Positions 1,663-30,511 of a DNA stretch of 32,000 nucleotides are shown here, one piece after another. Each line of letters starts with the position of its first letter. Within the stretch, counting starts at the first letter, position 1. This stretch comes from an uncultured Opitutales bacterium (GTDB lineage Bacteria; Verrucomicrobiota; Verrucomicrobiia; Opitutales; UBA9783), in contig CAKUSQ010000001.1 of NCBI GenBank assembly GCA_934691225.1, positions 210,001-242,000 on the forward strand. Reading direction: 5' to 3'. The translations under genes and the position numbers were made by a program. The notes under the pieces are model-generated. The model was not told the DNA's origin, ran no database searches, and saw nothing but the letters and a program-made list of their open reading frames with translations.

Positions 1663-1665
1663 GGT

Positions 1666-5071: not shown

Positions 5072-5148
5072 TGGTCGGGATGACCGGATTCGAACCAGCG
5101 ACGTCTACGTCCCGAACGTAGCGCTCTACCAGACTGAGCTACATCCCG
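5072..5148 (-). tRNA. tRNA-Pro (anticodon CGG)
   Basis: Reverse complement folds as a 77-nt cloverleaf. Acceptor CGGGATG/CATCCCG, D arm GCTC/GAGC, anticodon stem CTACG/CGTAG with loop TTCGGGA, T loop TTCGAAT, and an encoded ACCA 3' end. Confidence 0.93.
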
Positions 5149-8457: not shown

Positions 8458-10761
8458 TTATTCAAATTCCTTTAATGTTTTTTCAATTAAAGGTAAAAGC
8501 AGCTCCCTTGCATGCTTATTTAAAATAGGACTTATGTAAATATGTAAATACTTAGATGGTAACTTTATTGTTTTTAATGTTGAAATTTTCAAAAAAGGCC
8601 CTCCAGCTCCATGTAAAAGAATATTCGTATTGCTGTGTTGTTTCATTGGCACATAATAATGACGTTTTAAATCAGGACAACGATGCGCCTTTTCTAACAA
8701 ATTCTTCCAACGAATATCATACAACCAATTTTCAGAAATGATAATTTCTAAGATAAGTTTTTCGCTTAACATAGAATCGAAAGACGATTTTTTACCGAAC
8801 AATATTTCTCGCATAAGTCGCTCTAGATTCCACTCTACATCTGTTTTCAATTTCCTATCTATCTGATTTTCAACTACATCAAAATAATTCAAAACTTTTT
8901 CTTGTATCGCTTTATTATCTCTCAAATAACAAATTAAATCCGGTTGAGATAAAACCACATTAGGCTGCACAAACGTCACAAACGCCAACCATTCATCGTA
9001 CAAATCATACTTTTTAAAATGCTGTAAAACATCTAACAATTGAACGTATGCCATAGTATGATGTGGTAAACACAAAATAGCTTTACAATAACAATCAACT
9101 CCTTGCTTCAATGCATTATCACAAACGTACAAAGCTCCTAAACTCTCTAAAATTTCTGGCTGGTACGGATTTACTTTCAAAGATTCCTCATAATACGATA
9201 TTGAACGCTGAGCTAAATCTCGACTTTTCCGAAATCCACTGCAAGAAAAATAATACCCACCATGATTCAAATAATACAAATTATGCGGATCATTATCGAT
9301 AGCCTTTTTCAAAAAAAACTCACAATTTGTATCTTTATTACTAGCACATGTTACAAATTTCTTAAAATAGTAACGTCCTAAAACATCTTTAACACTAAAA
9401 AAAACAACGATTAAAAAAAGACACAGCGAAATGATTTTTAAAAGAACAAACAACGTCTTACTTTCACTTTCCTTAATTGCATCACTATAAACAAATTTCA
9501 ACTTAAGTATAAATCCAACGATAAGACAGAAAAAACACGAAATACAAAAAATATCCCATGATGATTCACTCATAAAAGATAAGTAAGAAAAAAAACTTAA
9601 TAAACATCCTCCTAAAACTATTTTATCAATCCTAGGAACATTGTTTTTTCTTAAAATATAAAAACCACTATAAATTATATATCCCAAACATAAAAAAGCA
9701 AAAATTCCTCCAATAAATCCAAACTCTATTAAAAATTGAACAGGTGCTACATGCAATTGCCAACAATGATGTACAATATCTGGAGAAGATTTTAAATAAT
9801 GTAACGGCGTAGTTGTAATACCATGGCCTGTCCACGGACTCGTTTCAACTAACGACCAACCATCTTGTGCCAAATACCACCGCTCCCCACAAAATGACTT
9901 TATACGACCCTTACATAATAAAGTTAAAATAACGCGCGTTTTTGGATTTAAATAAACAATAAAAAAAACCAATGACATTACACATAAAGGAATTATCCAA
10001 TATTTTTTCAAATATTTAACCCCTCGTTTGGCCCATATAAAAAATAGCAATAACAAAATAAATATCGAACTTAACCACGCTCCTTTACATTTCGATACCC
10101 ATAAAACACTAAATGCGTACACTAAGCCTAATAACCACACGTATTTTAACTTTTTCCGTTTATCTGCTAAAAAAAGTCCGATAAAAAATGGCCAAACAAT
10201 AGCTGCAAACATTCCAGCATAATTTGAATAATCAAATGGATTTCGGATCGTATCTAAAGTTAAAAAATCAAATAAATTAGCCGCATTTAACAAAAAACCT
10301 AAAAACAATGCACTCCATGGATATGAAAACTGTGCTTGGCTATAAAAACACGCCAATGTTAAACAAATGGAAAAATGTAAAAAAATAACAACAATAATTC
10401 CTAAAAACCTTAAAGAATCAAGGAATGCTTCTTTTTTAATTTGCCAAAATAAAAAACTTATTGCCATTGAACATAACATTATATCCAATTCACTCCCAGA
10501 TCGCACACGGTAATGACTAAAAAAAATGGACAATAACAATGCAATTTCAAAGCCCAACAAACACCCAATAAAAATTTTATCTTGTTTTTTTACACCAGAT
10601 CGCATCAATCGATACATACCCCACCCACAAACACTTAAATAAAAGACCTTAAGTCCCCATGCATATTCAAACACAAAACGATGTGCAGGATAAATTCCAG
10701 ATAATATTAAAATTATTAATCCAATAAAAAAACATCTTTGGTTTTTGTTAATAAAATTCAT
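8458..10761 (-). CDS. polytopic O-antigen ligase/polymerase-family (Wzy_C-like) membrane protein with C-terminal TPR domain
   Basis: 767 aa. About 12 or more hydrophobic helices in the first ~450 aa. Periplasmic-loop segment GHGITTTPLHYLKSSPDIVHHCWQLHVAPVQFLIEFGFIGG resembles the Wzy_C/WaaL/PglL signature. The C-terminal ~300 aa carry TPR-like repeats (SISYYEESLKVNPYQPEILESLGALY...). Confidence 0.65.
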   Translation of the reverse strand: MNFINKNQRCFFIGLIILILSGIYPAHRFVFEYAWGLKVFYLSVCGWGMYRLMRSGVKKQDKIFIGCLLGFEIALLLSIFFSHYRVRSGSELDIMLCSMAISFLFWQIKKEAFLDSLRFLGIIVVIFLHFSICLTLACFYSQAQFSYPWSALFLGFLLNAANLFDFLTLDTIRNPFDYSNYAGMFAAIVWPFFIGLFLADKRKKLKYVWLLGLVYAFSVLWVSKCKGAWLSSIFILLLLFFIWAKRGVKYLKKYWIIPLCVMSLVFFIVYLNPKTRVILTLLCKGRIKSFCGERWYLAQDGWSLVETSPWTGHGITTTPLHYLKSSPDIVHHCWQLHVAPVQFLIEFGFIGGIFAFLCLGYIIYSGFYILRKNNVPRIDKIVLGGCLLSFFSYLSFMSESSWDIFCISCFFCLIVGFILKLKFVYSDAIKESESKTLFVLLKIISLCLFLIVVFFSVKDVLGRYYFKKFVTCASNKDTNCEFFLKKAIDNDPHNLYYLNHGGYYFSCSGFRKSRDLAQRSISYYEESLKVNPYQPEILESLGALYVCDNALKQGVDCYCKAILCLPHHTMAYVQLLDVLQHFKKYDLYDEWLAFVTFVQPNVVLSQPDLICYLRDNKAIQEKVLNYFDVVENQIDRKLKTDVEWNLERLMREILFGKKSSFDSMLSEKLILEIIISENWLYDIRWKNLLEKAHRCPDLKRHYYVPMKQHSNTNILLHGAGGPFLKISTLKTIKLPSKYLHIYISPILNKHARELLLPLIEKTLKEFE

Positions 10762-10864: not shown

Positions 10865-11602
10865 ATGAATATTAAAATATTAAAATTCTGTTCGTTAGTT
10901 GCTGCACTTATAAGCACTAATATCGCTAATGCCCATTGGTGTCAAATATGTCATGAATATCATCGAGGTCGTTCCTGCCCTTACGTTTATTTAGGGCTAT
11001 CTTGTAATGATGGTTTTGGATGTCACTATTATTATGATGATGCTTATGATTGTTACGATGATGGTAATTCAGATGATGAAGAAGAAGCTTTAAGGCAACA
11101 AGAAGCACGTTTGAGAATGGCAAGAGAAGAACACAGGCAACGTCACCTAAGAAGACTTGCAAGTTCGGTTTCTAGCATTCATACAACAAACGATGCTAAT
11201 ATCGCTTTAGATCGTATTGCAGACCGTATCCAATCTACACATTACAATTGCAACCCAATTGAGATTAATCCTTACATTTTAGCCAACCTAACTAAAAACG
11301 CTTCTAACAATCTAAACGGTTTCAATGCAATTATAACTAACCTTCAAAATCGAGCTCAACAGTTTGGTTTTCGTTACAACCAAGCAACAGGACGTTTTAC
11401 AGCTCAACAACCTTTTTACAACTGTCAAGAATACCCTTTCGGTTGCAAAGATGATTATGGCTACAATTGCAATTCATACGATTCCTACGGTTGCCAAGAA
11501 CACTATGGTTACAGCTGTGAAGATGATTATCGATATGGTTGCAATTCATATGGGTATGATTGTTCAGACCATTATAGATACAGTAATCCCTACGGTTGCT
11601 AA
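10865..11602 (+). CDS. secreted Cys/Tyr/Asp-rich repeat protein, unknown function
   Basis: 245 aa. Sec-type signal peptide ending ANA|HW. Cys/Tyr/Asp-rich N- and C-terminal modules flank a charged helical core (EALRQQEARLRMAREEHRQRHLRRL). Own promoter and strong terminator. Confidence 0.8.
   Translation: MNIKILKFCSLVAALISTNIANAHWCQICHEYHRGRSCPYVYLGLSCNDGFGCHYYYDDAYDCYDDGNSDDEEEALRQQEARLRMAREEHRQRHLRRLASSVSSIHTTNDANIALDRIADRIQSTHYNCNPIEINPYILANLTKNASNNLNGFNAIITNLQNRAQQFGFRYNQATGRFTAQQPFYNCQEYPFGCKDDYGYNCNSYDSYGCQEHYGYSCEDDYRYGCNSYGYDCSDHYRYSNPYGC
11444..11599 (+). repeat. in-frame tandem repeat with an 8-codon period (C-x3-Y-x-Y-x), arranged as two ~24-codon super-repeats
   Basis: Peptide units: CKDDYGYN CNSYDSYG CQEHYGYS / CEDDYRYG CNSYGYD CSDHYRYSNPYGC. 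At DNA level the shared blocks gatgattat and tgcaattcata recur about 72 nt apart. Confidence 0.8.
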
Positions 11603-11703: not shown

Positions 11704-11789
11704 GCTTGAGTGGCGGAATGGTAGACGCTGAGGACTTAAAATCCTCTGATCGAAAGATCGTACGGGTTCAAGTCCCGTCTCGAGCACCA
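11704..11789 (+). tRNA. tRNA-Leu (anticodon TAA)
   Basis: 86-nt class II tRNA. Acceptor GCTTGAG/CTCGAGC, D arm GCG-GAATGGTAGA-CGC, anticodon stem GAGGA/TCCTC with loop CTTAAAA, long variable arm GATC-GAAA-GATC, T arm ACGGG-TTCAAGT-CCCGT, discriminator A plus encoded CCA. Confidence 0.92.
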
Positions 11790-15994: not shown

Positions 15995-17569
15995 TTAAGG
16001 TTCTTTTACTTTCCTGATTTCAGAGATATCATGTTTCTCCCACACCATCTCTCCAGCTTTTTCGGTTCTTGTTACAGCGGTGATACGATGACACACATCT
16101 TTAGAATTGCCTTGTTTCAACCAAACATCGATGACAAAATCATCCGTGCGTGCCGATAAATTCTGAAACAAATGAAGTTTCTCCTTAAAATTCCCTTGTA
16201 TTTGCTTTATAAAACTAAATCCATCCACAAATATCTGTCCACTTACAATTTCCTCTGTAATTAGACTTACATCATCTTCATTTAAATCATTCCCAAAAAT
16301 ATGCTGCAATTGTTGTTCGATATACAATCTAGGTGCATTAAAATTAATGAAAGGTGCTGTTTTATCGATAACCATTCTATTCCAAACCCAACGATTCAAA
16401 GATTTACAAGAATCTTTAATAAAATTTCCAATTTTTTTGTAAGGACTTCCATCAGGAAAAAACAAACAAGCATTTAATTTTTCAATCCATGTATCTGTAT
16501 AAAAAATAGTATGATAGTTTTCCATCACAATTTCCTTTGTAGTCCAAAACGATTTCGCTTCATCAGAATTTATACTCCATGCATTTCCATCACTCTTTAA
16601 CGCGCCCTCATATAACCAAAAATCCATGCATAACTCATTGGGAACATCTAAATAATATTTACCACTACTTCCCACGATTTTCAAGTTTACAAAAACAAAA
16701 TCACCTGTTTTTATAAAAAACGAATCTGTGTAGCCAATACCTACTTCAACATTTCCTCCTTTTTCTATATTAACATCCAAAATCTCTTCTTCATCTTTGC
16801 TACTTAATCCTGCAAAGCCAAATGTTGCTCTGTTACAAGAACAAATTTTAGTATAAGCTATTTTTAATTGACCTGTTAATCTTCTATCGTACGGATTAAA
16901 AAATTTCAATGTAATCTTTTGATTGCTTATGTCATCAGATACCTCCACCCCTATCAAAAAAGGAAAAAATAAACTCACTGGCAAAGCCTCTGTTTTGTCC
17001 CTTTTCAAAGCAACCCAACGCTTTTTAGCTAATTCAACCAATGTAGCCAATGTAAATTTCGTTTCATCTAAATGCGTTTCATCTAAACTTCCCTTCAAGA
17101 CACTTTCTAAGTCATGGTTATCCAAAGCCATCCAGTCATCCAATTGCTTACGATAACCCGTTTGTTGAAATTCAGGAAAACTTTTTGGAAATTCGTCAAA
17201 AACAGCAGAAATTTTATATCCCAACTGCCCATTTTCAAAGTTTTTATCCAAAATTCCTAAATCTTCTATAGGTTGAACACTCGTATCAAAAAAATGCAAT
17301 CCATCACTTTTAATTACAGGAATTATCGAGTTACTCGAAGCCATCGTTTTTAAAGATTCGTAAGCTATTGTTGATAATATCATCCATTGCTTTTCTACAA
17401 GATCTCGTTGCAAACGCTTCTTCTCTTTATCGTAATTTCCTAAATAAACAAATGTATAAGTCGCAATACCTCCACTTAACGTTCCTAGGAGCATTAAAAC
17501 CAGTAATATATTACCTCGTTCATAAACGTTTTTCCAACGGCATTTCTTTTGACATGAAATGTTTTCCAT
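15995..17569 (-). CDS. unknown bitopic membrane protein with a large periplasmic domain, translationally overlapped with the upstream secretin gene
   Basis: The track start at 17653 is TTG. I prefer the ATG at 17569 (MENISCQKK...), which has GGTGG 6 nt upstream (17576-17580). The alternative ATG is at 17575. Basic N-terminal stub, one TM (ILLVLMLLGTLSGGIATYTFVYL), then about 480 aa rich in aromatic and acidic residues with no motif I recognise. Confidence 0.6.
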   Translation of the reverse strand: MENISCQKKCRWKNVYERGNILLVLMLLGTLSGGIATYTFVYLGNYDKEKKRLQRDLVEKQWMILSTIAYESLKTMASSNSIIPVIKSDGLHFFDTSVQPIEDLGILDKNFENGQLGYKISAVFDEFPKSFPEFQQTGYRKQLDDWMALDNHDLESVLKGSLDETHLDETKFTLATLVELAKKRWVALKRDKTEALPVSLFFPFLIGVEVSDDISNQKITLKFFNPYDRRLTGQLKIAYTKICSCNRATFGFAGLSSKDEEEILDVNIEKGGNVEVGIGYTDSFFIKTGDFVFVNLKIVGSSGKYYLDVPNELCMDFWLYEGALKSDGNAWSINSDEAKSFWTTKEIVMENYHTIFYTDTWIEKLNACLFFPDGSPYKKIGNFIKDSCKSLNRWVWNRMVIDKTAPFINFNAPRLYIEQQLQHIFGNDLNEDDVSLITEEIVSGQIFVDGFSFIKQIQGNFKEKLHLFQNLSARTDDFVIDVWLKQGNSKDVCHRITAVTRTEKAGEMVWEKHDISEIRKVKEP

Positions 17570-19214
17570 TTTCATCCACCAAATTAGCTGTAACAAAAAT
17601 AACAAGATTTTTCTTTTGCGAAGTTTGCCCCTTTGAAGTAAACAACTTTCCAAACAAAGGAATAGCGCTTAAAATTGGAATCTTATCATTCGTTTCTTTG
17701 ATTTCTTCTCGCGTTAATCCGCCCATAACTAACGTGGAACCATCTTTCAAAGAAACCTCAGTTTTAATTTTTCTCGTTGAGAATATAGGTTGATAATACC
17801 CGGATTCAAATGCTTGGCTTTTTGTTGCAAATGTCACAACATTGGAACCACCGTATTGAACAAATCCTTCAAACTCCGTCACACAAGGCTCTAATGTTAA
17901 GTGAATTCTATTATCTCCCTCAACCAAAGGAATTACGGTCATTTCAACACCAATATTTCTTGTGGTAAAATTTTCAGGAACACCAGCTAATATGGTAGAT
18001 CCTGCAGAACTATTTTTTTCTGATTTTGAACCAACATCGCTTCGACCATCACGGTAACTTTCAGGATAACGTAATTCCTGAGCTACTACAATTTCAGCTT
18101 TTCTTCCAGACAAAACGGTTACTTTAGGTGCACTCATTAAGTCGGCATCCGAACGCTGCTCTATTGCTTTCAATAAAATATTCATTTGATATTTGTTCAA
18201 GATAGCATTGGCATCCAAAAAATTTCCAATAGAACTTCCTAAATTCAAAATATTCGGAAATTGAGGCATTAAAGAAGTATTTTCACTGTTTTTTAAGTAC
18301 GATTTATTATAATGCAATTGTGCTAAATCTCTTAAACTTGTTTTGGTATCAATTTTTACTTGATTGTTTGCACCAAAGTTTAATTTTAATCCCAATTCTT
18401 CCAAAACGCCTTGCTGCACCTCAAGAAATTTCGTTTCTATTGCAATTTGTTTGCTCTGACGATAAAGTTCTATAACTTTTTCTATTTTTTGTAAACAATC
18501 GATACGATGCGAGACAATAATATTTTGACCATCATAAGCAAAACCAACACCATTTTCCAAAAAATTAATACCGAGTTTTGCGAAAAACATTCGCAATTTG
18601 TCTTCTTCACTTTGTTCATTCTCAGGCTTGTCAACCTCTCGTGCAGTATAACTTAACAGCTGCAAAATACATCCCCGTGACACCGGAAAAACTTTCGTTA
18701 TTACTTTTACAACCTTATTTACTGGGTCACGAAATATAACAGAATTATCTTCAAAAGACATTTCAAAATTCGTCATTTCACGCAAATAATCAAGCAATTT
18801 AACACACGAAATCGACTGAACATTTAAATCAACTGTGGGGGCTTTGTGTTCCGCATCAATTAATATAAAATTCACACCGTCACCTTCCATATCATGAATG
18901 CGGACAATATCTGTTATCACTTTCAATGCTTGATTAAAAGGTAAATCACTAATAGATAATTTAGGAATGATAATGCGGTTTAAACGTTGCTGCAAAGTTA
19001 AAGGTGCAGGTACTTGTTCCAGCGGCTCACTTTCAACAATCTCCTGTTCTTTTACTTGTAATAACGGAATTTGCCAAGTTGATTGAACTTCCTTTAATAA
19101 GGCAGCCTTGGTAACGAAATGCATACTCTTTTCATTACCCAAAACGGTTTGAATAAATATAAAAAAAGTGAGTAAAAAAATCTCACACATCCTATTTTTG
19201 TGCACAAAGTCCAT
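17520..19214 (-). CDS. secretin-family outer-membrane channel (GspD/PilQ-type), copy 2
   Basis: 564 aa with an N-terminal signal sequence. C-terminal secretin signature GSTLVMGGLTREEIKETNDKIPILSAIPLFGKLFTSKGQTSQKKNLVIFVTANLV. Confidence 0.85.
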   Translation of the reverse strand: MDFVHKNRMCEIFLLTFFIFIQTVLGNEKSMHFVTKAALLKEVQSTWQIPLLQVKEQEIVESEPLEQVPAPLTLQQRLNRIIIPKLSISDLPFNQALKVITDIVRIHDMEGDGVNFILIDAEHKAPTVDLNVQSISCVKLLDYLREMTNFEMSFEDNSVIFRDPVNKVVKVITKVFPVSRGCILQLLSYTAREVDKPENEQSEEDKLRMFFAKLGINFLENGVGFAYDGQNIIVSHRIDCLQKIEKVIELYRQSKQIAIETKFLEVQQGVLEELGLKLNFGANNQVKIDTKTSLRDLAQLHYNKSYLKNSENTSLMPQFPNILNLGSSIGNFLDANAILNKYQMNILLKAIEQRSDADLMSAPKVTVLSGRKAEIVVAQELRYPESYRDGRSDVGSKSEKNSSAGSTILAGVPENFTTRNIGVEMTVIPLVEGDNRIHLTLEPCVTEFEGFVQYGGSNVVTFATKSQAFESGYYQPIFSTRKIKTEVSLKDGSTLVMGGLTREEIKETNDKIPILSAIPLFGKLFTSKGQTSQKKNLVIFVTANLVDENGKHFMSKEMPLEKRL

Positions 19215-19251
19215 TATCTATAACAAGAAACATTGACACAAAAACCCTGTA

Positions 19252-19284
19252 CGTTAAAAGATGTAGATTACATGTAAAATCTAC
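19252..19284 (-). terminator. weak hairpin with short U-tract between the pilin and secretin genes (possible attenuator or partial terminator)
   Basis: Minus-strand GTAGATT-TTACATGT-AATCTAC (19284-19263) followed by ATCTTTTAAC. The 7-bp stem is AT-rich, so the signal is weak. Confidence 0.3.
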
Positions 19285-19307
19285 TCAAGCAAAATGTAAA
19301 AAAATAT

Positions 19308-19886
19308 TCAATAATAACGATTTTTATATATTTCCAATTCGTTTTTTATTAATTTCAAATTTATTTCATTAAAAAGAACCGTATTATCATAACAACTACC
19401 AGCTCCATATCGTTTGTTTAATAAATTTTTCTTTTCTTGATTGTTCCAGCCATAAATACCCAATCCAAATGCAAACAGATTAATACCACTTGCATAATTG
19501 AGCCAATTCTCAAAATCATACCCTGTCCCCTGATAAGGTACAATTTTAAACGTATACTGACCCTCGCCATTATCTTTTTTATCGGTTATATAACCGGGGA
19601 AAGCCCAAGCTATTGCGCCCTCAAGTTGCCCTGTATTTCCATCTTTAGGAAACTCATTGTGAATCAAATAATACGAACGAAAACCATTTATTAAGATATC
19701 AATTTCTTCAAAGGTTGTTTTCATCTTCATATCTTGGTAACATTTTCGAAATGAAGGAACTGCCACTGAACTTACAATAGCAATAATACCAATCACAACT
19801 AACATTTCAATAAGGGTAAAACCACCATGTTTTGAGGTATGTTTAGCTAAAATGCTACCGTGTTTAGACAATATTACAGCACACAT
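19308..19886 (-). CDS. prepilin-type N-terminal cleavage/methylation domain protein (type IV pilin / pseudopilin-like)
   Basis: 192 aa. MCAVILSKHGSILAKHTSKHGG|FTLIEMLVVIGIIAIVSSVAVPSF gives the canonical G|F-T-L-I-E processing motif and hydrophobic alpha1 helix. It lacks the GspG-type core motifs I know. Confidence 0.85.
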   Translation of the reverse strand: MCAVILSKHGSILAKHTSKHGGFTLIEMLVVIGIIAIVSSVAVPSFRKCYQDMKMKTTFEEIDILINGFRSYYLIHNEFPKDGNTGQLEGAIAWAFPGYITDKKDNGEGQYTFKIVPYQGTGYDFENWLNYASGINLFAFGLGIYGWNNQEKKNLLNKRYGAGSCYDNTVLFNEINLKLIKNELEIYKNRYY

Positions 19887-19892
19887 AGTGTT

Positions 19893-19921
19893 AGTATAAT
19901 CAAAAAACAGGCGTTTTACAA
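19893..19921 (-). promoter_or_regulatory. candidate sigma70-type promoter placing the TSS on the pilin ATG (leaderless configuration)
   Basis: On the minus strand: TTGTAA (19921-19916), 17-nt spacer, TATACT (19898-19893), then 6 nt (AACACT), then the ATG at 19886. Confidence 0.45.
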
Positions 19922-20319: not shown

Positions 20320-21456
20320 TTATTGACGTGTACGGGGTTGACCTCCACGCAACCAAGCTTCAATGAACAAATCGATATCGCCATCCATAACCGCTTGTAC
20401 ATTACCAGTTTCAACATTCGTTCTCAAATCCTTCACCATTTGATAAGGTTGAAATACGTAACTTCGAATTTGATAGCCCCAACCAATTTCTCCTTTTTCA
20501 CCATAAAAACGCTCCATCGCAGACCGTTTTTCATCCTGCATTTTCTCATAAATACGAGCCTTCAACACTTTCATTGCAGTAGCTCGATTCTTGATTTGCG
20601 AACGTTCGTTTTGACAAGTAACAACAATACCTGTAGGAAAGTGTGTAATGCGAACGGCAGACTCTGTTTTATTAACATGCTGACCACCTTTACCACTTGC
20701 ACGATAAGTATCAACACGAATATCTTTATCTTCAACCGGTACCTCAATATCATCGTTCAATTCAGCCACCACATCAACGGCACAAAACGAAGTATGCCGT
20801 TTTCGATTAGCATCAAACGGACTGATTCTTACTAAACGATGAACCCCTCTTTCGGCTTTCAAATACCCATATGCATTAGGCCCTGAAACCACAAAAGTAA
20901 CCTTACTGATACCCGCTTCCTCACCATCTTGAATAGCTTGAATATCGGTAATAAAACCTTTACGTTCCGCCCAACGGAGATACATTCTAAAAACCATCTG
21001 GGTCCAATCACAAGCCTCGGTTCCACCGGCTCCCGCATGAATAGTTACAATTGCATTATTAGCGTCCATTGGTCCTGACAAAAAAGCTTGCAATTCCATT
21101 GTATCCACCAGTTTTTTTGCTTTTTCAATCGATGCATCTAGTTCTTGTAACCAAACTTGCTCTTCATCTGCCTGTAAATCGTTACCTTTGCACATTTCAA
21201 AGATTTCTTGTAAGTTTTCAAAAATCTTCTTTCCATCTTGTACAATCATCAAAGAACGTTCTAGTTCTTTTGCCTCCTTTTGTAAGGCTTGCGCTTTCTC
21301 CAAATTATCATTCTGCCAAAAGGTATCATCTGCCAACTGATTTTGAATATCCTTCAGGCGTTGTTCTCGATTCTCTACTTGAAAAAAAGCTAAAATCTTA
21401 CTCCAACGCTCTGACAAAGTTGCCATAATTTCCTTTTTATCAACATCTAATATCAT
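20320..21456 (-). CDS. prfB: peptide chain release factor 2 (single uninterrupted frame)
   Basis: SPF tripeptide (RISPFDANRKRHTSF) and GGQ motif (RASGKGGQHVNKTESAVRITH). The N-terminus aligns in length with E. coli RF2 from the ATG at 21456 (alternative ATG at 21426). There is no in-frame stop at the usual frameshift position. Confidence 0.92.
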   Translation of the reverse strand: MILDVDKKEIMATLSERWSKILAFFQVENREQRLKDIQNQLADDTFWQNDNLEKAQALQKEAKELERSLMIVQDGKKIFENLQEIFEMCKGNDLQADEEQVWLQELDASIEKAKKLVDTMELQAFLSGPMDANNAIVTIHAGAGGTEACDWTQMVFRMYLRWAERKGFITDIQAIQDGEEAGISKVTFVVSGPNAYGYLKAERGVHRLVRISPFDANRKRHTSFCAVDVVAELNDDIEVPVEDKDIRVDTYRASGKGGQHVNKTESAVRITHFPTGIVVTCQNERSQIKNRATAMKVLKARIYEKMQDEKRSAMERFYGEKGEIGWGYQIRSYVFQPYQMVKDLRTNVETGNVQAVMDGDIDLFIEAWLRGGQPRTRQ

Positions 21457-21570
21457 AAGCTACTCTTGAAACGCTCTTTAAAAGATAACATACGCCAAAA
21501 ACATACGTCAAGCTTTAACCTTAACACATAATTTAATACCTTTTTCTCTCGTTAAATTTTCGAAAAATGA

Positions 21571-21600
21571 TTTACAAAAAGTTATCAAACGTTCTAAATT
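21571..21600 (+). promoter_or_regulatory. candidate promoter immediately upstream of the 163-aa ORF (leaderless or near-leaderless)
   Basis: TTTACA (21571-21576), 18-nt spacer, TAAATT (21595-21600), then 6 nt to the ATG at 21607. Alternative: 17-nt spacer with CTAAAT. Confidence 0.35.
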
Positions 21601-21606
21601 TGAAAT

Positions 21607-22098
21607 ATGGCAAAAGTAGATTTAGAATTGGTTAAGCGCATACTCAAACGGGCTGACATAGAAAACAACATTTTAAGTGAAATTATGGGTGAGCTGCAAT
21701 CGGCTGTTAATGAAGATAACACTACCGATGAACCCAAAGCAATTCCTCAGAAAAAACAATTTGTTGTATTAGTTGCTGACAACGAAGGCGTTTTATCAGA
21801 CAAAGAACTGGTTGGCTGGGTTCTTCAATTGCCAGAAGATGAACCTATGACATCCGTTTCTGAAAAAATAACACGCGTTGCCAAAGCCTTCAATTTATCA
21901 AAAAAAGGACGGCGTTATCCAGTAGCTACCGTTGGAGAAACTTGCGAAAATGTATCTAGCCGCATTTTCAAAGAACAAAAACTATGGTTAAAAACCAAAG
22001 AACCTGTGTTGCTTGTACCTATTCAAAATCAACTTGAATTAGATAAAGTTGAACTAAAAGATTTTAATGACAATTTCAGTCATGAAGATGTTTTTTAA
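21607..22098 (+). CDS. hypothetical protein
   Basis: 163-aa ORF, soluble and acidic, with no motif I recognise. First gene of the plus-strand block ahead of tRNA-Leu and serS. Confidence 0.55.
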   Translation: MAKVDLELVKRILKRADIENNILSEIMGELQSAVNEDNTTDEPKAIPQKKQFVVLVADNEGVLSDKELVGWVLQLPEDEPMTSVSEKITRVAKAFNLSKKGRRYPVATVGETCENVSSRIFKEQKLWLKTKEPVLLVPIQNQLELDKVELKDFNDNFSHEDVF

Positions 22099-22192
22099 AT
22101 CAAACACAATGTTTAATGCATGTTAAAATTTTTCACTTTAGCATTGCGTTTAACATTTATGTACTTTTTACTCAAATATAACCCTTTTATGT

Positions 22193-22276
22193 GCTTAGGT
22201 GGTGGAATGGTAGACACACACGTTTGAGGGGCGTGTGCCGAGAGGCGTGGGGGTTCGAGTCCCCTCTTAAGCACCA
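22193..22276 (+). tRNA. tRNA-Leu (anticodon GAG)
   Basis: 84-nt class II tRNA. Acceptor GCTTAGG/CTTAAGC, D arm GTG-GAATGGTAGA-CAC (parallels the Leu-TAA gene), anticodon stem CACGT/GCGTG with loop TTGAGGG (U33, G37), variable arm GCC-GAGA-GGC, T arm GGGGG-TTCGAGT-CCCCT, discriminator A plus CCA. Confidence 0.85.
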
Positions 22277-22283
22277 GAATCTT

Positions 22284-23552
22284 ATGTTAGACATTCATCA
22301 ATTTCGTTCGTCGTTTGACGAAGTTCAACGTGGAATCTCAACCAAACACTTTCAATGTGATTTAAATAAAGTTCGTACGTTAGACCAGCAACGTATCTCT
22401 TGTCTAAAAGCATTCGAAGCTGCACGGGCTCAGCAACAATTAGCTAACAAAACTATAGCTGCTTTGGACAAAAAATCAGAAGCATTTCGTTCTGCTATTG
22501 CTCAACTTAAAACTTTATCGGAAGAAACTAAACGTCTTGAAGAAGCTTATAAATCAGCGGATCAAGCGTTTATGCAAGAATGGTTAACAGTTCCCAATAT
22601 ACCCGACGTCTCTGTACCTATCGGCAAAACGTCTCAGGATAATCAAGAACTTTATCAGTGGCATCCTAAAAAAGAAGATTTTCAATATGCGTGCCCTCAT
22701 TACGACATTCCTAACTTCGATCGTTGGTTGGACTTTGGTCGCGGGACAAAAGTTATGGGTGCAGGATTTCCTTTTTATGTAGGACCTGTAGCACGTCTTG
22801 TACGCGCACTTATCACATTTTTCCTGGATGAAGCTCGAAAAAATGGATACACGGAATTATTAACCCCTTTATTAGTTAATGCAGCGAGCGCAACTGCTAC
22901 CGGTCAATTACCGGATAAAGAAGGACAAATGTACAGCACAGGTGATGGCTATCTTATACCCACGGCGGAAGTTCCCGTTACCAATTTTATTCGCAATGAA
23001 ATTCTGAATGAAACAGATTTGCCAAAAAAATGTTGTGCTTACTCTTCTTGTTTTCGACGAGAAGCAGGAAGTTGGGGCAAAGATGTTCGCGGCCTTAATC
23101 GTCTACATCAATTTGACAAGGTTGAACTCGTGCAATGGGTTCATCCTGAAAAAAGTTTGTCGGCGCTTGAACAATTACGTAAAGATGCTGAATCGCTTCT
23201 ACAAAAACTTGAACTGCCATATCGTGTATTAGCTATTTGTACGGGTGACATGGGATTTCCGCATGCTAAACAGTACGATCTAGAGGTTTGGGCCGCTGGA
23301 CAAAAGCGCTGGTTAGAAGTTTCAAGTTGCAGCTGTTTTACCGATTTCCAAGCACGTCGTGCAAATATTCGTTACCGAACAAAAGATGGAAGTTTACAAT
23401 TTGTTCATACCCTTAACGGTTCCGGATTAGCTGTACCGCGCGTCTTAGCAGCTATCCTTGAAAATTATTATCAAACATCTGGTTGCGTTAAAATTCCTAC
23501 CGTCTTACACAAATGGCTTCCAGAGGAAGAAATCAATTTCTCAGATAAATGA
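22284..23552 (+). CDS. serS: seryl-tRNA synthetase
   Basis: N-terminal coiled-coil arm. Class II motifs NRLHQFDKVE and TLNGSGLAVPRVLAAILENY. The track ORF starts at a GTG at 22191 inside the tRNA. The true start is the ATG at 22284 (MLDIHQFRS...). Confidence 0.93.
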   Translation: MLDIHQFRSSFDEVQRGISTKHFQCDLNKVRTLDQQRISCLKAFEAARAQQQLANKTIAALDKKSEAFRSAIAQLKTLSEETKRLEEAYKSADQAFMQEWLTVPNIPDVSVPIGKTSQDNQELYQWHPKKEDFQYACPHYDIPNFDRWLDFGRGTKVMGAGFPFYVGPVARLVRALITFFLDEARKNGYTELLTPLLVNAASATATGQLPDKEGQMYSTGDGYLIPTAEVPVTNFIRNEILNETDLPKKCCAYSSCFRREAGSWGKDVRGLNRLHQFDKVELVQWVHPEKSLSALEQLRKDAESLLQKLELPYRVLAICTGDMGFPHAKQYDLEVWAAGQKRWLEVSSCSCFTDFQARRANIRYRTKDGSLQFVHTLNGSGLAVPRVLAAILENYYQTSGCVKIPTVLHKWLPEEEINFSDK

Positions 23553-23600
23553 TTTAAAAATAAGGTTGACCTTTTGCGTAAAAGAACGAATAATATTGGC

Positions 23601-24458
23601 ATGAAATTTGTAAAGCAATTATCATTAATCGGTTCTTCCGTATTGCTAACCTCGCCTTTGTTCAGCGATAATAATGCTGAAGCAAAAGCATCTGCCGAAG
23701 CTGATAAAACAGTTGAAGTAAAGTCTGTCGCTGAAACAGCTGCTAAAGCAACTGAAGTCGAACCTACCCAAGAACAAAAATTATCCTACTTCAAAACATT
23801 GGGTTGGATGACAGTTATGCAAAGCGGAATAAAAAACTTGGGAACTGATGACAAAGAAAAAGAAGCTTTTCTTCAAGGAGCATCGTTAGCCATAGAAGAT
23901 AAAGATTCTCCTTGCAAATTGGGTGATGTAATGGAATCTATGCAAAAATTTCTTCAAAAAAGATCTGAAGATTACGCTAAAAAACATCAAGAGGAATTAA
24001 AAGTGATTGCTGAAAAAAATCGTAAAGCTGGTCAAGAATTTATGACCAACATCAAAAAGAATGATGCGGACATCAAAACAACTTCCACAGGATTAAGTTA
24101 CAAAATTCTTGCCGAAGGTGATAAAAAAATCAAGGCTTCTGATGAAGATACAGTTGAAATTTTCTATACCGGTAAGCTCATTGATGGTAAAGTTTTTGAT
24201 GAATCCAAACATAAAGATCCGATCAGTTTTCCATTAAACGGTGTTGTTCCAGGCATCAAGGAAGGTTTACAATTGATCGGCCAAGGTGGAAAAGTTACAC
24301 TTTACATTCCTGATAATTTAGCTTACGGTGAATACGATATTCCTAGCATTCCCGCAGGTTCACTTTTAGTTTTCGATGTAGAACTTGTAAAAGTAATCAA
24401 AACTGAAAAGCCTGTTGCAGATGCAGGAAATAAAGTTAAAGAAGCCGAAGCTAAATAA
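23601..24458 (+). CDS. FKBP-type peptidyl-prolyl cis-trans isomerase (Mip/FkpA-like), secreted
   Basis: ATG at 23601 gives the signal peptide MKFVKQLSLIGSSVLLTSPLFS. C-terminal FKBP domain VEIFYTGKLIDGKVFDES...VPGIKEGLQLIGQGGKVTLYIPDNLAYG...LVFDVELVKV. Confidence 0.9.
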   Translation: MKFVKQLSLIGSSVLLTSPLFSDNNAEAKASAEADKTVEVKSVAETAAKATEVEPTQEQKLSYFKTLGWMTVMQSGIKNLGTDDKEKEAFLQGASLAIEDKDSPCKLGDVMESMQKFLQKRSEDYAKKHQEELKVIAEKNRKAGQEFMTNIKKNDADIKTTSTGLSYKILAEGDKKIKASDEDTVEIFYTGKLIDGKVFDESKHKDPISFPLNGVVPGIKEGLQLIGQGGKVTLYIPDNLAYGEYDIPSIPAGSLLVFDVELVKVIKTEKPVADAGNKVKEAEAK

Positions 24459-24481
24459 ATTTATTCATGTATTCATTGTTA

Positions 24482-24509
24482 AACACCGAAGTCTATTCGG
24501 TGTTTTTTT
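24482..24509 (+). terminator. rho-independent terminator
   Basis: 9-bp stem AACACCGAA/TTCGGTGTT (24482-24490 with 24496-24504), 5-nt loop, T-run to 24509. Confidence 0.8.
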
Positions 24510-24510
24510 A

Positions 24511-24539
24511 TTGCAAACGTAAACAATAATGTCTTTAAT
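24511..24539 (+). promoter_or_regulatory. candidate sigma70-type promoter for the structured element
   Basis: TTGCAA (24511-24516), 17-nt spacer, TTTAAT (24534-24539). The predicted +1 at 24546 is the first base of the closing helix of the downstream element. Confidence 0.4.
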
Positions 24540-24545
24540 TAAAAA

Positions 24546-24746
24546 GAAGGGTTCGAACTTAGGAAAACGCAGTTCATTAGAGCGTAAAATTATCCTGAGA
24601 TCTATACTTACGGGATTTCCGGTGTAAAATAGCTGTTAAGCCCTCTAGAAGGGACAACAAAAGTTTTACCAAGTTAACCCACCTATAAATACAAGAGGTA
24701 TAATTTTCCCTCTCAAACGTTTTTTTCAGTTCGATTTAAACCCTTC
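24546..24746 (+). ncRNA. candidate structured small RNA, a rod-like ~200-nt imperfect hairpin (6S-like architecture; identity unknown)
   Basis: Nested helices read from the sequence: 24546-24553/24739-24746 (8 bp), 24554-24559/24728-24733 (6 bp), 24561-24569/24718-24726 (9 bp including 2 G-U), 24586-24593/24700-24707 (8 bp), plus an apical hairpin 24641-24644/24650-24653. It lies between two convergent terminators. The G-U pairs favour the plus sense. Confidence 0.35.
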
Positions 24747-24751
24747 CTTAT

Positions 24752-24787
24752 AAAACAAAAAAACTCCAAAGTAAACATACCTTAGAG
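24752..24787 (-). terminator. rho-independent terminator of the secretion operon
   Basis: Minus strand: CTCTAAGG-TATGTTTA-CTTTGGAG followed by TTTTTTTGTTTT. Its two G-U pairs would be C-A mismatches on the plus strand, so the hairpin is strand-specific. Confidence 0.55.
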
Positions 24788-24808
24788 CTTTCATTTAAGT
24801 TATTGTAT

Positions 24809-26023
24809 TTATATCTTTATTGAACTACTAAATTGCATAATACTGGAAACAATTCCTAAAGCTAATATGCTTACCATAAAAAATGCAAAACCAAGTGCAC
24901 ATGAAGTAATCCCATTCGTCAACTTATTGAAACGTTCATCCAACTCTTGATTATGCAAATAATACACTTCTTTAAAACTATCTTGGATATTACCAACACT
25001 TTCACCTACCATAAGGATATCCAGTGCCAAATCGGTAAAAAGTGACATACCCTTGGTTTTAAATGCCATCGTTAAAGCAACACCATCGTTAATCTTCCCA
25101 CGAGCTTCTTGATATTGCTGCCGAAAATAAGTATTTTTAATGGAACGCTCTGTTAAACGCATCGCTTCGGTTAAATTGACACCACTTCCTAACAAGGTAG
25201 CCAATAAATTTGAAACACGACAAATCTCAACATAACGTAAAATAGAACCTAACAAAGGCATTTTTAGCAAAAAAGTATCTACCTTAAGCAATCCTTGGGC
25301 TGATTTTTTACACCATTGTTGGATCACCAAATAAAATACAGCCGAACCTATAAAAACGATTGGAAGACCATACAATAAGACATTAGAGAATCCTATTAAA
25401 ATCTTGGCTGGTAAAGTCAAACCACCTCCCATAGAAGTTAACATGCCTTCAATTCGTGGTAATAAGAAAAACAAGAAAAAAGCAACCACACCGATAGCCA
25501 CCAGAGAAACAACAACTGGATAGGCCATACCAGCAACAATTTTCTTCTTTAATTGTTCGCGTTCAGATAATAAACGAATGATTTCTGTTAACACTGGAGC
25601 TAAATTTCCGGTAGCTTCTGCAGCTTCAATAGGACAAACAATATCATCATTAAAAACATTCGGATAATTTTTAAGCGCTGCCCCTAAACTCTTACCTTCA
25701 CTTAACTCACGCCATAAAACGACGGATAAGTCCCTTAATTTAGGATCTTGGATTCGCGTTTGTAAAATTTTAAGTGTATCACCCAAAGGTAACCCTGCAC
25801 CATGCAACTGCAATAAACGTTTTAAAAAAGGTAAAGCAACTTTGGACGTTAACTTTTTTACATTATCTTGCTGCTGATCCTTTGAACTATCGCGTCCGAC
25901 CAATGTTAAAATCGAAGCCTGAATCCCTTGCCTTGCCAACAAACTCAAAGCTTGCTTCTTATTTTCAGCAAAAATAGTACCTTCTTTGCTACTTCCAGCT
26001 ACCTTATATTTAAACTTCAACAT
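24809..26023 (-). CDS. gspF: type II secretion / type IV pilus inner-membrane platform protein (GspF/PilC family)
   Basis: I prefer the ATG at 26023 (MLKFKYKVAGSSKEGTIFAENKKQALSLLARQGI is a typical GspF/PilC N-terminus), 7 nt after the gspE stop. Two repeated cytoplasmic domains and three TM segments. Confidence 0.85.
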   Translation of the reverse strand: MLKFKYKVAGSSKEGTIFAENKKQALSLLARQGIQASILTLVGRDSSKDQQQDNVKKLTSKVALPFLKRLLQLHGAGLPLGDTLKILQTRIQDPKLRDLSVVLWRELSEGKSLGAALKNYPNVFNDDIVCPIEAAEATGNLAPVLTEIIRLLSEREQLKKKIVAGMAYPVVVSLVAIGVVAFFLFFLLPRIEGMLTSMGGGLTLPAKILIGFSNVLLYGLPIVFIGSAVFYLVIQQWCKKSAQGLLKVDTFLLKMPLLGSILRYVEICRVSNLLATLLGSGVNLTEAMRLTERSIKNTYFRQQYQEARGKINDGVALTMAFKTKGMSLFTDLALDILMVGESVGNIQDSFKEVYYLHNQELDERFNKLTNGITSCALGFAFFMVSILALGIVSSIMQFSSSIKI

Positions 26024-26030
26024 AACCTGC

Positions 26031-27743
26031 CTATTGTTCCGCGGAAGTTTCCGATAAATCCACAGCTGCAAATCTTAACAACGCGCTCCAACTTGTAAGC
26101 CCACGTTTAACCTGCTCCCAACCGTTTTGGTAAAGCGTCCGCATACCTTCTTCAACCGCAATCTTTTTGATATTAAACGCAGATTCTTTTCTAAGAATAG
26201 CTTCATGAATTCGATCTGAAACACTTAACAATTCAAAAATTCCAACACGCCCTTTATACCCTGTATTACCACATTGGTCACACCCAACAGGCTCACGCAT
26301 CAAATGAGCATACTGAATTTCGGAGGCAGGAATCCCTAATTGAGCCATTTGCTCCTCTAACTTCTTTGCGTCTATTTCACAAGCTTTGCAACAATGTGGA
26401 CATAATTTACGAATCAAACGCTGAGCTAAAATTAATTCAACCGAAGAAGTAACCAAAAAAGGTTCAATTCCCATATCCACTAAGCGCGTCAAACCACCTG
26501 CAGCATCGTTTGTATGCAATGAACTCAAAACCAAGTGCCCTGTTAATGAAGCTCTAATAGCGATATCCGCAGTTTCACGATCTCGAATTTCTCCAATCAT
26601 AACAACATCAGGATCTTGACGCAAAATATGACGCAAAGCACTTGCAAACGTAAAACCAATCTCACTGTGCACCTGCGATTGATTTACACCATCAATTTCA
26701 TATTCTATCGGATCTTCAACAGTAATGATGCGCCGCTCAGGCGTACGAATACGACGCACGAAAGCACTTAACGAAGTAGACTTACCGGATCCTGTAGGAC
26801 CTGTAACTAAAATAATTCCATGCGGTTTATGTATGTTTTGATCAATAACTTTGAGATCTTCATGCAACAAACCCAATTCTTCTAAAGTAACAGGACGATT
26901 ACCTTGGCTCAACAATCGTAAGCTGACACTTTCACCGTACATCGTTGGCAATGTAGATAAACGTATATCCAATTCGATAGGTCCCGATGTAAATCGAATG
27001 CGACCATCCTGCGGACGACGCTTTTCAGAAATATTCAAACGAGCCATAATTTTCAAACGCGAAATAATTGCTGCTTGCAATTTCACCAAGTTATCTGGCA
27101 GTTTAACAGGAACCAACTGACCATCAATTCTGTATCGAATTTGAATAGAATTCTTCTGAGGTTCAAAATGAATATCTGTTGCACGATCTGCTACAGCTTT
27201 AACAACAATTTCATTTACAAAACGAATAATAGCAGCGTCTTCATCCTCTTCAACGTTCTCTTCGCTCGTTTCAACTTCGCTCAGTTCATCATCCAAACTA
27301 TCGGAACCCACCCCAAAATTTTGAATAATGGTATTGGCTACATTGCGCGCGTACGTCAGGTACCAAATAACAGGCCGTCCACAAGAAATCTCAATCCAAC
27401 GAATCATTTCATCGCTCGGAGGCCAAACGGTCACTAAATGCAAACAATTTGGATTTAAATTATTTTTCAAATCAATGGGTAAACATTGATATTCATGGAT
27501 CAACCTCAATGGAATGCACTGCTCTGCGTTGCTCAAAACTGAGAAATTTTCCAAAAATGCAAGGCCACAATCCGTAGCAACTTGGTGACAAATGGAATCT
27601 TCCGAACGATCGAGCAGGCTTGCTAATCTCTGCATGCGCTCGTAAGGCGGCAATTTCAGAATTTCCTCTTGTTGTTCCTTATCTAAATGCTCAAAAAGAC
27701 TAGGGATACGAACTCGATAACTGCTTAAAGGATTTATTGCCAT
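26031..27743 (-). CDS. gspE: type II secretion / type IV pilus assembly ATPase (GspE/PilB family)
   Basis: Walker A GPTGSGKST, Asp/Walker B region DPDVVMIGEIRD, His box GHLVLSSLHTND, and tetracysteine CPHCCKAC...CDQCGNTGYKGR. Confidence 0.92.
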   Translation of the reverse strand: MAINPLSSYRVRIPSLFEHLDKEQQEEILKLPPYERMQRLASLLDRSEDSICHQVATDCGLAFLENFSVLSNAEQCIPLRLIHEYQCLPIDLKNNLNPNCLHLVTVWPPSDEMIRWIEISCGRPVIWYLTYARNVANTIIQNFGVGSDSLDDELSEVETSEENVEEDEDAAIIRFVNEIVVKAVADRATDIHFEPQKNSIQIRYRIDGQLVPVKLPDNLVKLQAAIISRLKIMARLNISEKRRPQDGRIRFTSGPIELDIRLSTLPTMYGESVSLRLLSQGNRPVTLEELGLLHEDLKVIDQNIHKPHGIILVTGPTGSGKSTSLSAFVRRIRTPERRIITVEDPIEYEIDGVNQSQVHSEIGFTFASALRHILRQDPDVVMIGEIRDRETADIAIRASLTGHLVLSSLHTNDAAGGLTRLVDMGIEPFLVTSSVELILAQRLIRKLCPHCCKACEIDAKKLEEQMAQLGIPASEIQYAHLMREPVGCDQCGNTGYKGRVGIFELLSVSDRIHEAILRKESAFNIKKIAVEEGMRTLYQNGWEQVKRGLTSWSALLRFAAVDLSETSAEQ

Positions 27744-27748
27744 AAATA

Positions 27749-28324
27749 TTACTTTCTATTATCCCAATCATCTGGCATATCTTCATCATCCAAATCATCT
27801 AACATTGATGCCCAATTGGAAGCACTGCCATAGCCCAAAGATGAATTTTTATTTCCTTCTAAATTAGGCTCTACCTGTGTGATACGAACCAAATTACCAT
27901 TGATTGCATCCTGTACAATTAGTACTCGATCAATGGGCAAAAAATTCCAGTAGGTAATTCCGAATTTACCATCATTTTTTGAAGGTTCTGATGACAACCA
28001 AAATTCCTGCCCTAACGTCTTCTCTTTCAAGCCAAACTCTAGGTGATCCGAATATTTTACGACGCTAAAAAATTCGAAATTAGAAGCTTCAACTGAAGTT
28101 AAACTATCCACACCTCGTTCTGACGTTTTAAAAGGCACAAAAGGATTGTTACTTTTCAAGTTAGCCGACATTTTTTCAATTTCAATCGGTTTAGGATTTT
28201 CTGTTACTTCCACAGTCACAGTGGCAGTTTCATTAGAAACTAACTCAGGATTTGTAGAAGATTCAGATGCAAATACATTTCCAACCCCAATTGAAACTAT
28301 CATATTAAATAATAAACGTTTCAT
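27749..28324 (-). CDS. secreted/periplasmic protein, possibly PilP/GspC-HR-like, with an acidic C-terminal tail
   Basis: 191 aa with a signal peptide. NNPFVPF motif followed by a beta-rich segment (FEFFSVVKYSDHLEFGLKEK...LIVQDAINGNLVRITQ), reminiscent of PilP/GspC homology regions. The ATG overlaps the gspD stop (ATGA at 28321-28324). The assignment is tentative. Confidence 0.4.
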   Translation of the reverse strand: MKRLLFNMIVSIGVGNVFASESSTNPELVSNETATVTVEVTENPKPIEIEKMSANLKSNNPFVPFKTSERGVDSLTSVEASNFEFFSVVKYSDHLEFGLKEKTLGQEFWLSSEPSKNDGKFGITYWNFLPIDRVLIVQDAINGNLVRITQVEPNLEGNKNSSLGYGSASNWASMLDDLDDEDMPDDWDNRK

Positions 28325-30501: not shown

Positions 30502-30511
30502 AGATGTATTT

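Follow-up and report, generated by a model that had tools for sequence, protein, structure and literature searches.

A short secretin and its large, fast-evolving partner protein as a candidate satellite module of a type II secretion-class machine in an uncultured Opitutales bacterium

Introduction

Three genes on the minus strand of a 32,000-nucleotide (nt) stretch of DNA from an uncultured Opitutales bacterium (contig CAKUSQ010000001.1; the whole stretch is referred to as the window) encode a prepilin, a short secretin (secretin2) and a large protein that we call X. The locus raises the question of how a pilin and a channel work with no motor encoded among them, and what X contributes. The parts of the answer differ in strength. 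X is a new, unannotated family tied to the short secretin, and the system is a variant within the class of type II secretion systems (T2SS) and type IV pili rather than a new kind of machine. As to its role, we tentatively favor a reading of X as a pilin-like subunit that is exposed on the surface, at the tip or as the initiator of a satellite fibre, and this fibre would use the dedicated secretin and the neighbouring motor. The trio and its flanks are arranged as follows.

20320-21456, minus strand: prfB
start at 20318, minus strand: acpS, 123 amino acids (aa)
19921-19893, minus strand: promoter-like TTGTAA-17-TATACT, 5' of the pilin gene, matching at 9 of 12 positions
19308-19886, minus strand: prepilin, 192 aa
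19263-19284, minus strand: weak hairpin with a 7-bp stem in the pilin-secretin spacer, centroid fold -6.9 kcal/mol
17520-19214, minus strand: secretin2, 564 aa
15995-17575, minus strand: X, 526 aa (ATG 17575) or 524 aa (ATG 17569)
from ~15940, minus strand: dnaE

The string prfB-acpS-pilin-secretin2-X-dnaE is tight and runs in one direction, and a T2SS operon lies ~5 kb away. The genome has low GC (~35%) and a strong strand bias; the module, at GC 0.32-0.345, is slightly under its neighbouring genes. Reading of the sequence agrees with a preliminary description of the window on the positions of the three open reading frames (ORFs), and a Pfam scan agrees with it on acpS and dnaE as their flanks, the true acpS start being 20318. 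It was also right that genes for an ATPase, a platform, a peptidase and PilMNOP are missing from the trio, and that X starts 50 nt inside the secretin gene. This overlap belongs to ATG 17569 and the 524-aa form, while the alternative ATG 17575, used by the public gene call P0001, gives 56 nt and 526 aa. Residue numbers of X follow the 524-aa form, as in the AlphaFold2 model. The promoter-like signal and the hairpin described before and after the pilin gene both exist, but neither is above chance: the region has 23 promoter-like sites against 18.4 +/- 4.7 in shuffles, and the spacer folds with z = 0.52 versus shuffles, with the hairpin uncalled by a terminator scan. Both elements are uninformative on operon structure, and the hairpin is no argument against read-through.

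Secretin2 and X form the conserved unit

X is a real gene, because it is under purifying selection outside its central domain (ratio of nonsynonymous to synonymous rates, dN/dS, of 0.1-0.4 across three strains) and because its relatives reach down to ~22% identity. Besides the sister strains L001/L002 and L099/L100, which are 96-97% identical to the window in nucleotides, X is found in L003 (42% identity) and in L004, L015, L016 and L017/L018 (25-31%). It follows a secretin of 552-574 aa in every context recovered; the L015 contig holds a C-terminal fragment of the secretin only. The two genes overlap by 41-56 nt in all contexts (window, L001, L003, L004, L015, L016 and L017), in L003 after correction of a miscalled start. 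Across these contexts the identity of X drops to 25-31%, while that of secretin2 stays at 52-58%. The synteny by which the preliminary description proposed to judge the trio is positive for secretin and X, whose overlap is kept in all contexts; a pilin gene next to the pair is confined to the clade of the window (window, L001, L099 and L003). Since the pilin is adjacent in one clade and secretin and X are linked in all contexts recovered, the conserved unit is secretin2 plus X. The lineage recurs in public metagenomes, and the 185-aa gene of its T2SS operon is listed in 50 index blocks.

The family of X is small and has no annotated member. Pfam and NCBIfam give no match for X, and a Pfam search at E≤10 with 20 family members returns noise and no relevant family. 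PDB sequences searched with the X-family profile return noise as well. Among 1.84 billion representative proteins scanned exhaustively with HMMER, only 18 clusters are related to X, and scans of GTDB species representatives with two X-family alignments find no relative. The view of X as an uncharacterised protein is thus upheld, both by profile searches and by Foldseek on the predicted structure, neither of which gave a known family. A prophage origin of the secretin-X pair (pI/pIV-like) was considered and rejected, as no context has flanking phage genes.

The strict adjacency and overlap of X with its secretin gene resembles that of the gspC-gspD and pilP-pilQ pairs, and this brings in a different reading. 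X may be an inner-membrane-anchored periplasmic adaptor with an uncleaved signal anchor, which docks the short secretin on a shared platform as GspC or PilP/PilN would. This is possible but on balance doubtful. It is helped by the lack of any GspC/PilP-type gene in the module itself and by the occurrence of the pair without an adjacent pilin in L004, L016 and L017. The anatomy and the rate of evolution of X both bear on it.

Anatomy of X

The 18 family members whose N-terminus is intact all have a basic leader, a motif of the form [RKQ][GA]/[NSTH][IL][LV][LF] (the slash marks the putative cleavage position) and ~20 hydrophobic residues; in X itself the hydrophobic segment is 24 residues long. 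Glu at position +5 is found in none of the 18, its place being taken by Val, Ala, Ile or Thr. Such a class III-type N-terminus without Glu5 is typical of GspK, and X has it, though position -1 is Ala in 8 of the 18 and position +1 is polar. The N-terminus of the GspK encoded in the neighbouring operon (RRQG/AILILVLGML) and that of E. coli GspK (QRG/VALLIVL) are of the same type.

The AlphaFold2 model of X, built from a 22-sequence alignment, has a predicted local distance difference test score (pLDDT) of 78 and a predicted template modelling score (pTM) of 0.75. Its predicted elements are:

13-77: single helix
82-123: five short beta-strands
143-189: helices
204-325: hypervariable beta-sandwich
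361-467: helices
477-522: three long strands

The first helix is predicted to extend 58 residues past the Gly, which is roughly as long as alpha-1 of a pilin. Foldseek against the PDB with the whole model gives nothing under E 0.06 and only weak Ig-like (immunoglobulin-like) sandwich matches; the C-terminal 194 residues modelled alone (pLDDT 64.7) give nothing.

This anatomy cuts both ways for a periplasmic adaptor. Like GspC and PilP, which dock on the secretin N0 domain, X is bitopic with its N-terminus inside, has a beta-rich periplasmic part and is encoded next to the secretin gene. The first domain after the helix is small, all-beta and conserved among strains (dN/dS 0.11-0.19), as an adaptor domain could be. 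However, no T2SSC or PilP match appears at E≤10 in 20 members, nor any PilN or PilO match, and no such chain is among the top Foldseek matches. X has no detected HR, PilP or PDZ domain, is about three times larger than GspC or PilP, and lies downstream rather than upstream of the secretin. It also carries a hypervariable domain with dN/dS of ~1 or more. PilN, PilO, GspL and GspM are not matched by X in Pfam, and the domain that follows the helix is predicted to be all-beta, not ferredoxin-like. PilN carries an 'INLLP' motif, and a PilN-like reading of the 'NILL' in X was tried and dropped, because the motif belongs to the hydrophobic helix and because the PilM-like domain of this genome is already fused into the GspL-like protein. 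A plain anchor would not account for the small residue that is invariant where the helix meets the cytoplasm, nor for the NILL-type motif there.

Rates of evolution

Rates were computed as dN/dS among the three strains. For dnaE, prfB, GspF, serS and the FKBP gene, dN/dS is 0.01-0.11, with 0.03-0.11 for the neighbours of X, and the dnaE product is 96-99% identical in amino acids. Secretin2 behaves like these genes (dN/dS 0.08-0.11; 96-99% amino-acid identity). The prepilin is 93-95% identical with dN/dS 0.35-0.42, above the housekeeping neighbours. X as a whole has dN/dS 0.44-0.79, made up of very different parts: the first 130 residues have 0.11-0.19, while residues 233-345 have 0.94, 1.18 and 2.01 and are only 59-77% identical between strains. 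In an alignment of the whole X family, identity is 13% in the central domain, where 46% are gaps, versus 24-37% elsewhere in X.

The same order is seen at greater distance. Between the window and the L016 genome, protein identity is 82% for GspG, 78% for YchF and 55% for secretin2, and it is 42-44% for the minor pseudopilins, 35% for GspK and 27% for X. Over deep divergence the rate pattern of X resembles that of the minor pseudopilins and GspK, not that of GspG or the secretin. The fast centre of X together with the elevated rate of the pilin suggests the usual pattern of exposed fibre parts rather than of machine parts. A conserved channel, a variable pilin and a very variable X would be expected if pilin and X face the outside, and these comparisons suggest that a periplasmic ring partner fits less well. 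The partner of a ring made of a 96-98% identical secretin is unlikely to keep a domain of ~100 residues with dN/dS 0.94-2.0 and 59-77% identity, and X diverges far faster than the secretin that it would have to fit (27% versus 55%). An adaptor thus explains the strict gene linkage better than a tip subunit does, and the rate pattern and N-terminal motif worse. The preliminary description had offered X as a replacement of GspC or PilMNOP; for this we find no positive evidence, and the dN/dS of 0.94-2.0 in the central domain and the pilin-like N-terminus make a poor fit.

Synonymous divergence of X between L001:10001-11554 and L099:2772-4331 is 0.055, and that of the secretin and dnaE in the same pair is 0.178 and 0.112. 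The low value for X may point to recombination, or to alleles of mosaic origin.

The short secretin

Secretin2 has a signal peptide, a conserved N-terminal region (~72-222) and an N3-like plus secretin region (223-554). Its C-terminal secretin domain, reported in the preliminary description, is confirmed by PF00263 (3.2e-36; 124.9 bits versus a cut-off of 27.5 bits). Residues 223-554 match GspD at 99% by hhalign, and PDB sequence matches include GspD, PilQ and phage pIV (1e-15 to 9e-7). The N3-like segment aligns with GspD; residues 72-222 are conserved in the family yet have no match. Pfam finds no Secretin_N or N0 domain in secretin2, though one is present in the operon's GspD, and no TPR in secretin2 either.

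The best curated family for secretin2 is the verrucomicrobial Amuc_1098 family (NCBIfam NF042912), with 7e-72 and 242.7 bits; the L016 orthologue scores 4.7e-73. This match is the one pointer in the sequence data to a PVC or Verrucomicrobiota affinity. Secretin2 falls short of membership, with 242.7 bits against a cut-off of 750, and matches only positions ~565-803 of the ~805-position model. Amuc_1098 of Akkermansia is a 907-aa TPR-bearing PilQ with an N-terminal TPR/BamD-like region (Ottman et al. 2016; PMC4960237). The Amuc_1098 family, from Akkermansia and other Verrucomicrobiota, is like secretin2 over the secretin domain; Amuc_1098 and its ~900-aa metagenomic relatives have TPR, whereas secretin2 and its orthologues have 552-574 aa and none. 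A metagenome scan with the secretin2 alignment retrieved 80 loci (L019-L098) with long, TPR-bearing secretins of this type and not short ones. These secretins are 33-45% identical to secretin2, and a search with the X-family hidden Markov model finds no X relative in the 80 loci.

These loci bear on the idea that X is a cargo or surface protein, exported or displayed through the short secretin, with its hydrophobic N-terminus serving as Sec targeting signal and temporary anchor. We consider this improbable. The hypervariable central domain suits an exposed protein, and exported proteins seem common next to Amuc_1098-type secretins in the 80 loci, which gives weak support. The analogy is one of position only, though, as those secretins have another architecture and no X beside them. 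A hydrophobic stretch of 24 residues in a helix predicted to reach residue 77, with no signal-peptidase-type site, is unlike a cleavable Sec signal. The purifying selection on the conserved N- and C-terminal domains of X suggests fixed protein partners.

The long Amuc_1098-type secretins, mostly from marine metagenomes, show a feature of their own. Often a protein of 1400-1900 aa with an N-terminal hydrophobic segment is encoded immediately downstream (for example at L021:7975-12360, L050:7907-13213 and L065:7901-13057). Each of the three such giant proteins scanned combines a reprolysin-like domain with Ig-like domains, PPC domains or both. Elsewhere among these loci the downstream gene encodes a ~125-aa He_PIG Ig-domain protein with a signal peptide. 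An Amuc_1098-type secretin with an exported neighbour may be a recurrent pairing of secretin and cargo.

The prepilin

The 192-aa prepilin has a leader of 22 aa ending in GG, followed by FTLIEMLVVIGIIAIV, and the cleavage motif is GG/FTLIEM. It has all the marks of a pilin-type N-terminus: Gly at -1, a hydrophobic residue at +1, Glu at +5 and ~20 hydrophobic residues. The N-terminus matches Pfam N_methyl (PF07963) at 6.2e-8 and NCBIfam TIGR02532 at 3.5e-7. In the six-frame translation of the window, this is the only match to G-F-[TS]-L-[IL]-E. The globular part of ~145 aa has no family match. No pilin subfamily (GspG, PilA, ComGC and others) matches over it, the NCBIfam matches covering residues ~17-82 only. 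The NCBIfam GspG score is 29.1 bits against a cut-off of 88.9, and the other NCBIfam matches are likewise far under their cut-offs. Pfam T2SSG does not match the prepilin, while the operon's GspG matches it well.

The neighbouring type II secretion operon

A motor is encoded close by. Contig L006 is 100% identical to window positions 20512-32000 and extends 9 kb further, so that window and L006 together give ~41 kb of sequence. In this span the T2SS operon is complete, in the order GspG-H-I-J-K-L-M-D-x-E-F. Its genes are:

31066 to past the window end, minus strand: GspL-like, matching PilN
30512-31069, minus strand: 185-aa single-pass protein in GspM/PilO position, without family match
28321-30501/30522, minus strand: GspD (Pfam/NCBIfam)
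27749-28324, minus strand: 191-aa protein between gspD and gspE, with signal peptide and acidic tail, without family match
26031-27743, minus strand: GspE (Pfam/NCBIfam), with tetracysteine motif
24809-26023, minus strand: GspF (Pfam/NCBIfam)
in L006: GspG (T2SSG 1.9e-26), three minor pseudopilins (H-, I- and J-like) and a 367-aa GspK

The 367-aa GspK matches NCBIfam T2SS_GspK (NF037980) at 6.6e-6, and a PilM-like domain is fused into the GspL-like protein. The preliminary description had taken this for a second secretin operon with GspE/GspF but no pilin. That is not the case, and the missing pilin is an artefact of the window edge, because the operon runs off the window and its continuation in L006 carries GspG, minor pseudopilins and GspK. 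The full set of motor, platform and alignment genes lies within 5-15 kb of the trio.

Upstream of the operon, L006 holds YchF, a 184-aa secreted protein, a 389-aa GspE-family ATPase and dnaA. Short GspE-family ATPases (365-389 aa) are encoded at L006:2729-3898, L016:6906-8036 and L016:11416-12513; one of them keeps its place upstream of the T2SS operon, where the gene of the fast-evolving 184-aa secreted protein comes next. They score best as ComGA-like (5e-62 to 9e-64) and have neither the tetracysteine (Zn-binding) C-terminus of GspE/PilB nor the PilT AIRNLIRE motif. In L016 the secretin-X pair is divergently placed beside the T2SS supercluster, between two of these ATPase genes. Because of this placement, the trio is not an isolated motorless system but the satellite of a larger cluster close to the replication origin. 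Motor and platform are probably supplied to it by the T2SS operon, and one motor serving two channels is plausible.

A less integrated arrangement, in which the trio is part of a separate type IV pilus or competence system with its other genes elsewhere in the genome and nothing shared with the T2SS, is rather unlikely; X could have any of the roles considered in it. Type IV pilus genes are commonly scattered, ~41 kb were read of a genome that has a contig of at least 848 kb, and ComGA-like short ATPases occur near the T2SS operon and flank secretin-X in L016, all of which would allow it. Yet all of the longer contexts place the pair inside or beside the T2SS supercluster or among housekeeping genes, and no second GspF/PilC platform or PilM gene is visible in the contexts read. 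The short ATPases, moreover, have no Zn-binding C-terminus of the kind found in assembly ATPases and no AIRNLIRE motif.

Other features of the window

Between the FKBP gene and gspF lies a 6S (SsrS) RNA (24552-24736, plus strand), with 46.8 bits versus the Rfam gathering threshold of 46.4. A tRNA-Leu(GAG) at 22193-22276 (plus strand) overlaps the first 80 nt of the listed serS ORF (GTG 22191), and the real serS start must therefore be downstream of this GTG. Further tRNAs are tRNA-Pro(CGG) at 5072-5148 (minus strand) and tRNA-Leu(UAA) at 11704-11789 (plus strand). The ORF at 10865-11602 (plus strand) encodes a 245-aa predicted secreted protein with Cys/Tyr/Asp-rich ends (CxxC, 'YGC' repeats) and no Pfam match. 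The ORF at 8458-10761 (minus strand), conserved in L001, encodes a membrane protein of 767 aa that carries a Wzy_C (O-antigen ligase-type) domain and matches TPR weakly; Wzy_C-type proteins include pilin O-glycosylases. A Tol/Ton-type cluster at the window start (139-2721, minus strand) comprises an ExbB/ExbD pair, a TPR/YfiO-like protein and a 156-aa protein of unknown type.

Discussion

If X is a pilin-like tip or initiator subunit, the trio would work as a satellite output module of a T2SS/type IV pilus-class machine. The 192-aa prepilin would be processed by the cell's prepilin peptidase and polymerised on the platform encoded nearby (GspE, GspF and the GspL-like and GspM-like proteins), possibly with help from the 389-aa GspE-family ATPase. 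The fibre would leave through the dedicated short secretin. X, the secretin's obligate partner, would be a very large pilin-like subunit without Glu5 placed at the start of the fibre, and hence at its tip. Its N-terminal helix and flanking conserved domains would dock on the fibre, with the hypervariable central beta-sandwich displayed outside the cell. We infer here the cleavage of X by prepilin peptidase, its location at the tip, its exposure on the surface and the sharing of the motor.

Several observations weigh against this picture. No prepilin peptidase gene is seen in the ~41 kb read. A prepilin peptidase substrate would rarely have Asn, Ser or Thr at +1, as X does, or Ala at -1, as 8 of 18 members do. 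Genes for minor pilins are usually found among other pilin genes and not downstream of a secretin gene, and in L004, L016 and L017 no pilin gene adjoins the secretin-X pair. The substitution counts behind the rates are small (Nd 30.5 and Sd 3.5 in the best pair); for this reason dN/dS near 1 in X may also reflect relaxed constraint. Foldseek with either the full X or its C-terminal 194 residues finds no pilin, GspK, CofB or TcpB. Profile comparison of the X family with a canonical GspK profile (six sequences from E. coli, Pseudomonas, Providencia and Acinetobacter) by hhalign gives a probability of 1.9-3.9%, confined to the hydrophobic helix, and ≤1.1% when the helix is removed. Resemblances to GspK seen by eye (INFN with INLN, QPY with RPxGW, LSxRTExFxI with SxYF) occur only in a suboptimal alignment with E 0.3. 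Homology gives no support to an assignment of X as pilin or GspK.

GspK (XcpX), a T2SS minor pseudopilin that caps the pseudopilus, is among the closest known proteins. X shares the order of elements known for GspK from PDB 3CI0, with a short basic leader whose last residue is Gly, a hydrophobic helix that lacks Glu5, strands, a helical insertion and C-terminal strands, and it evolves about as fast as the operon's own GspK. It differs in being 160-200 residues longer, in its inserted beta-sandwich and in having no profile similarity past the hydrophobic helix. X always follows the secretin gene, never gspI-gspJ as a GspK gene does, and the GspK slot of the T2SS operon in this genome is already held by the 367-aa protein. 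Neither X nor 20 relatives match T2SSK or NCBIfam T2SS_GspK. Membership of X in GspK was rejected after hhalign comparisons with E. coli GspK, the operon GspK family and canonical and merged profiles, with and without the helix. X is not to be filed as GspK, because these comparisons failed while the positive control passed: the operon's 367-aa GspK family matches the canonical profile end to end at 84.6% (E 6.8e-6).

CofB (~518 aa) and TcpB (~423 aa) are single large type IVb minor pilins that act as tip-located initiators and adhesin platforms. X is of similar size and also has a pilin-like N-terminus followed by beta-rich domains. The neighbourhood of major pilin, secretin and one large minor pilin is alike as well, and so is the 22-aa leader of the major pilin. 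In contrast to CofB and TcpB, X has no Glu5, and neither sequence nor Foldseek matches link it to them. The gene order is pilin-secretin-X instead of cofA-cofB-cofC, and the +1 residue of the window's pilin is Phe, which is also found there in type IVa pilins and T2SS pseudopilins. For one machine with a second secretin encoded elsewhere, XqhA of Pseudomonas aeruginosa gives a precedent, being an orphan secretin able to serve the Xcp T2SS; unlike secretin2, this GspD paralogue stands alone and has neither a pilin nor a partner gene dedicated to it.

The usual description of a secretin system is that of a fixed set of 12-15 parts, and here a short secretin is always paired with one unannotated partner. 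If X is a pilin-anchored tip, the module would be a very small accessory fibre that borrows its motor, and a simple case for secretin-fibre recognition. If X is instead an adaptor in the manner of GspC, it would solve secretin docking in a new way. The hypervariable domain marks X as a likely contact with host, phages or the immune system. Whichever role holds, the X family deserves a name and a database model. It is conceivable, though we hold it with some doubt, that X is an undescribed class of secretin-coupled subunit: giant, with a pilin-type anchor and a hypervariable domain facing host or phage. With its minimal secretin, and in some lineages a pilin of its own, it would then give a T2SS-type motor a second, plug-in exit port and tip, 'one motor, two outputs', in uncultured bacteria with reduced genomes.

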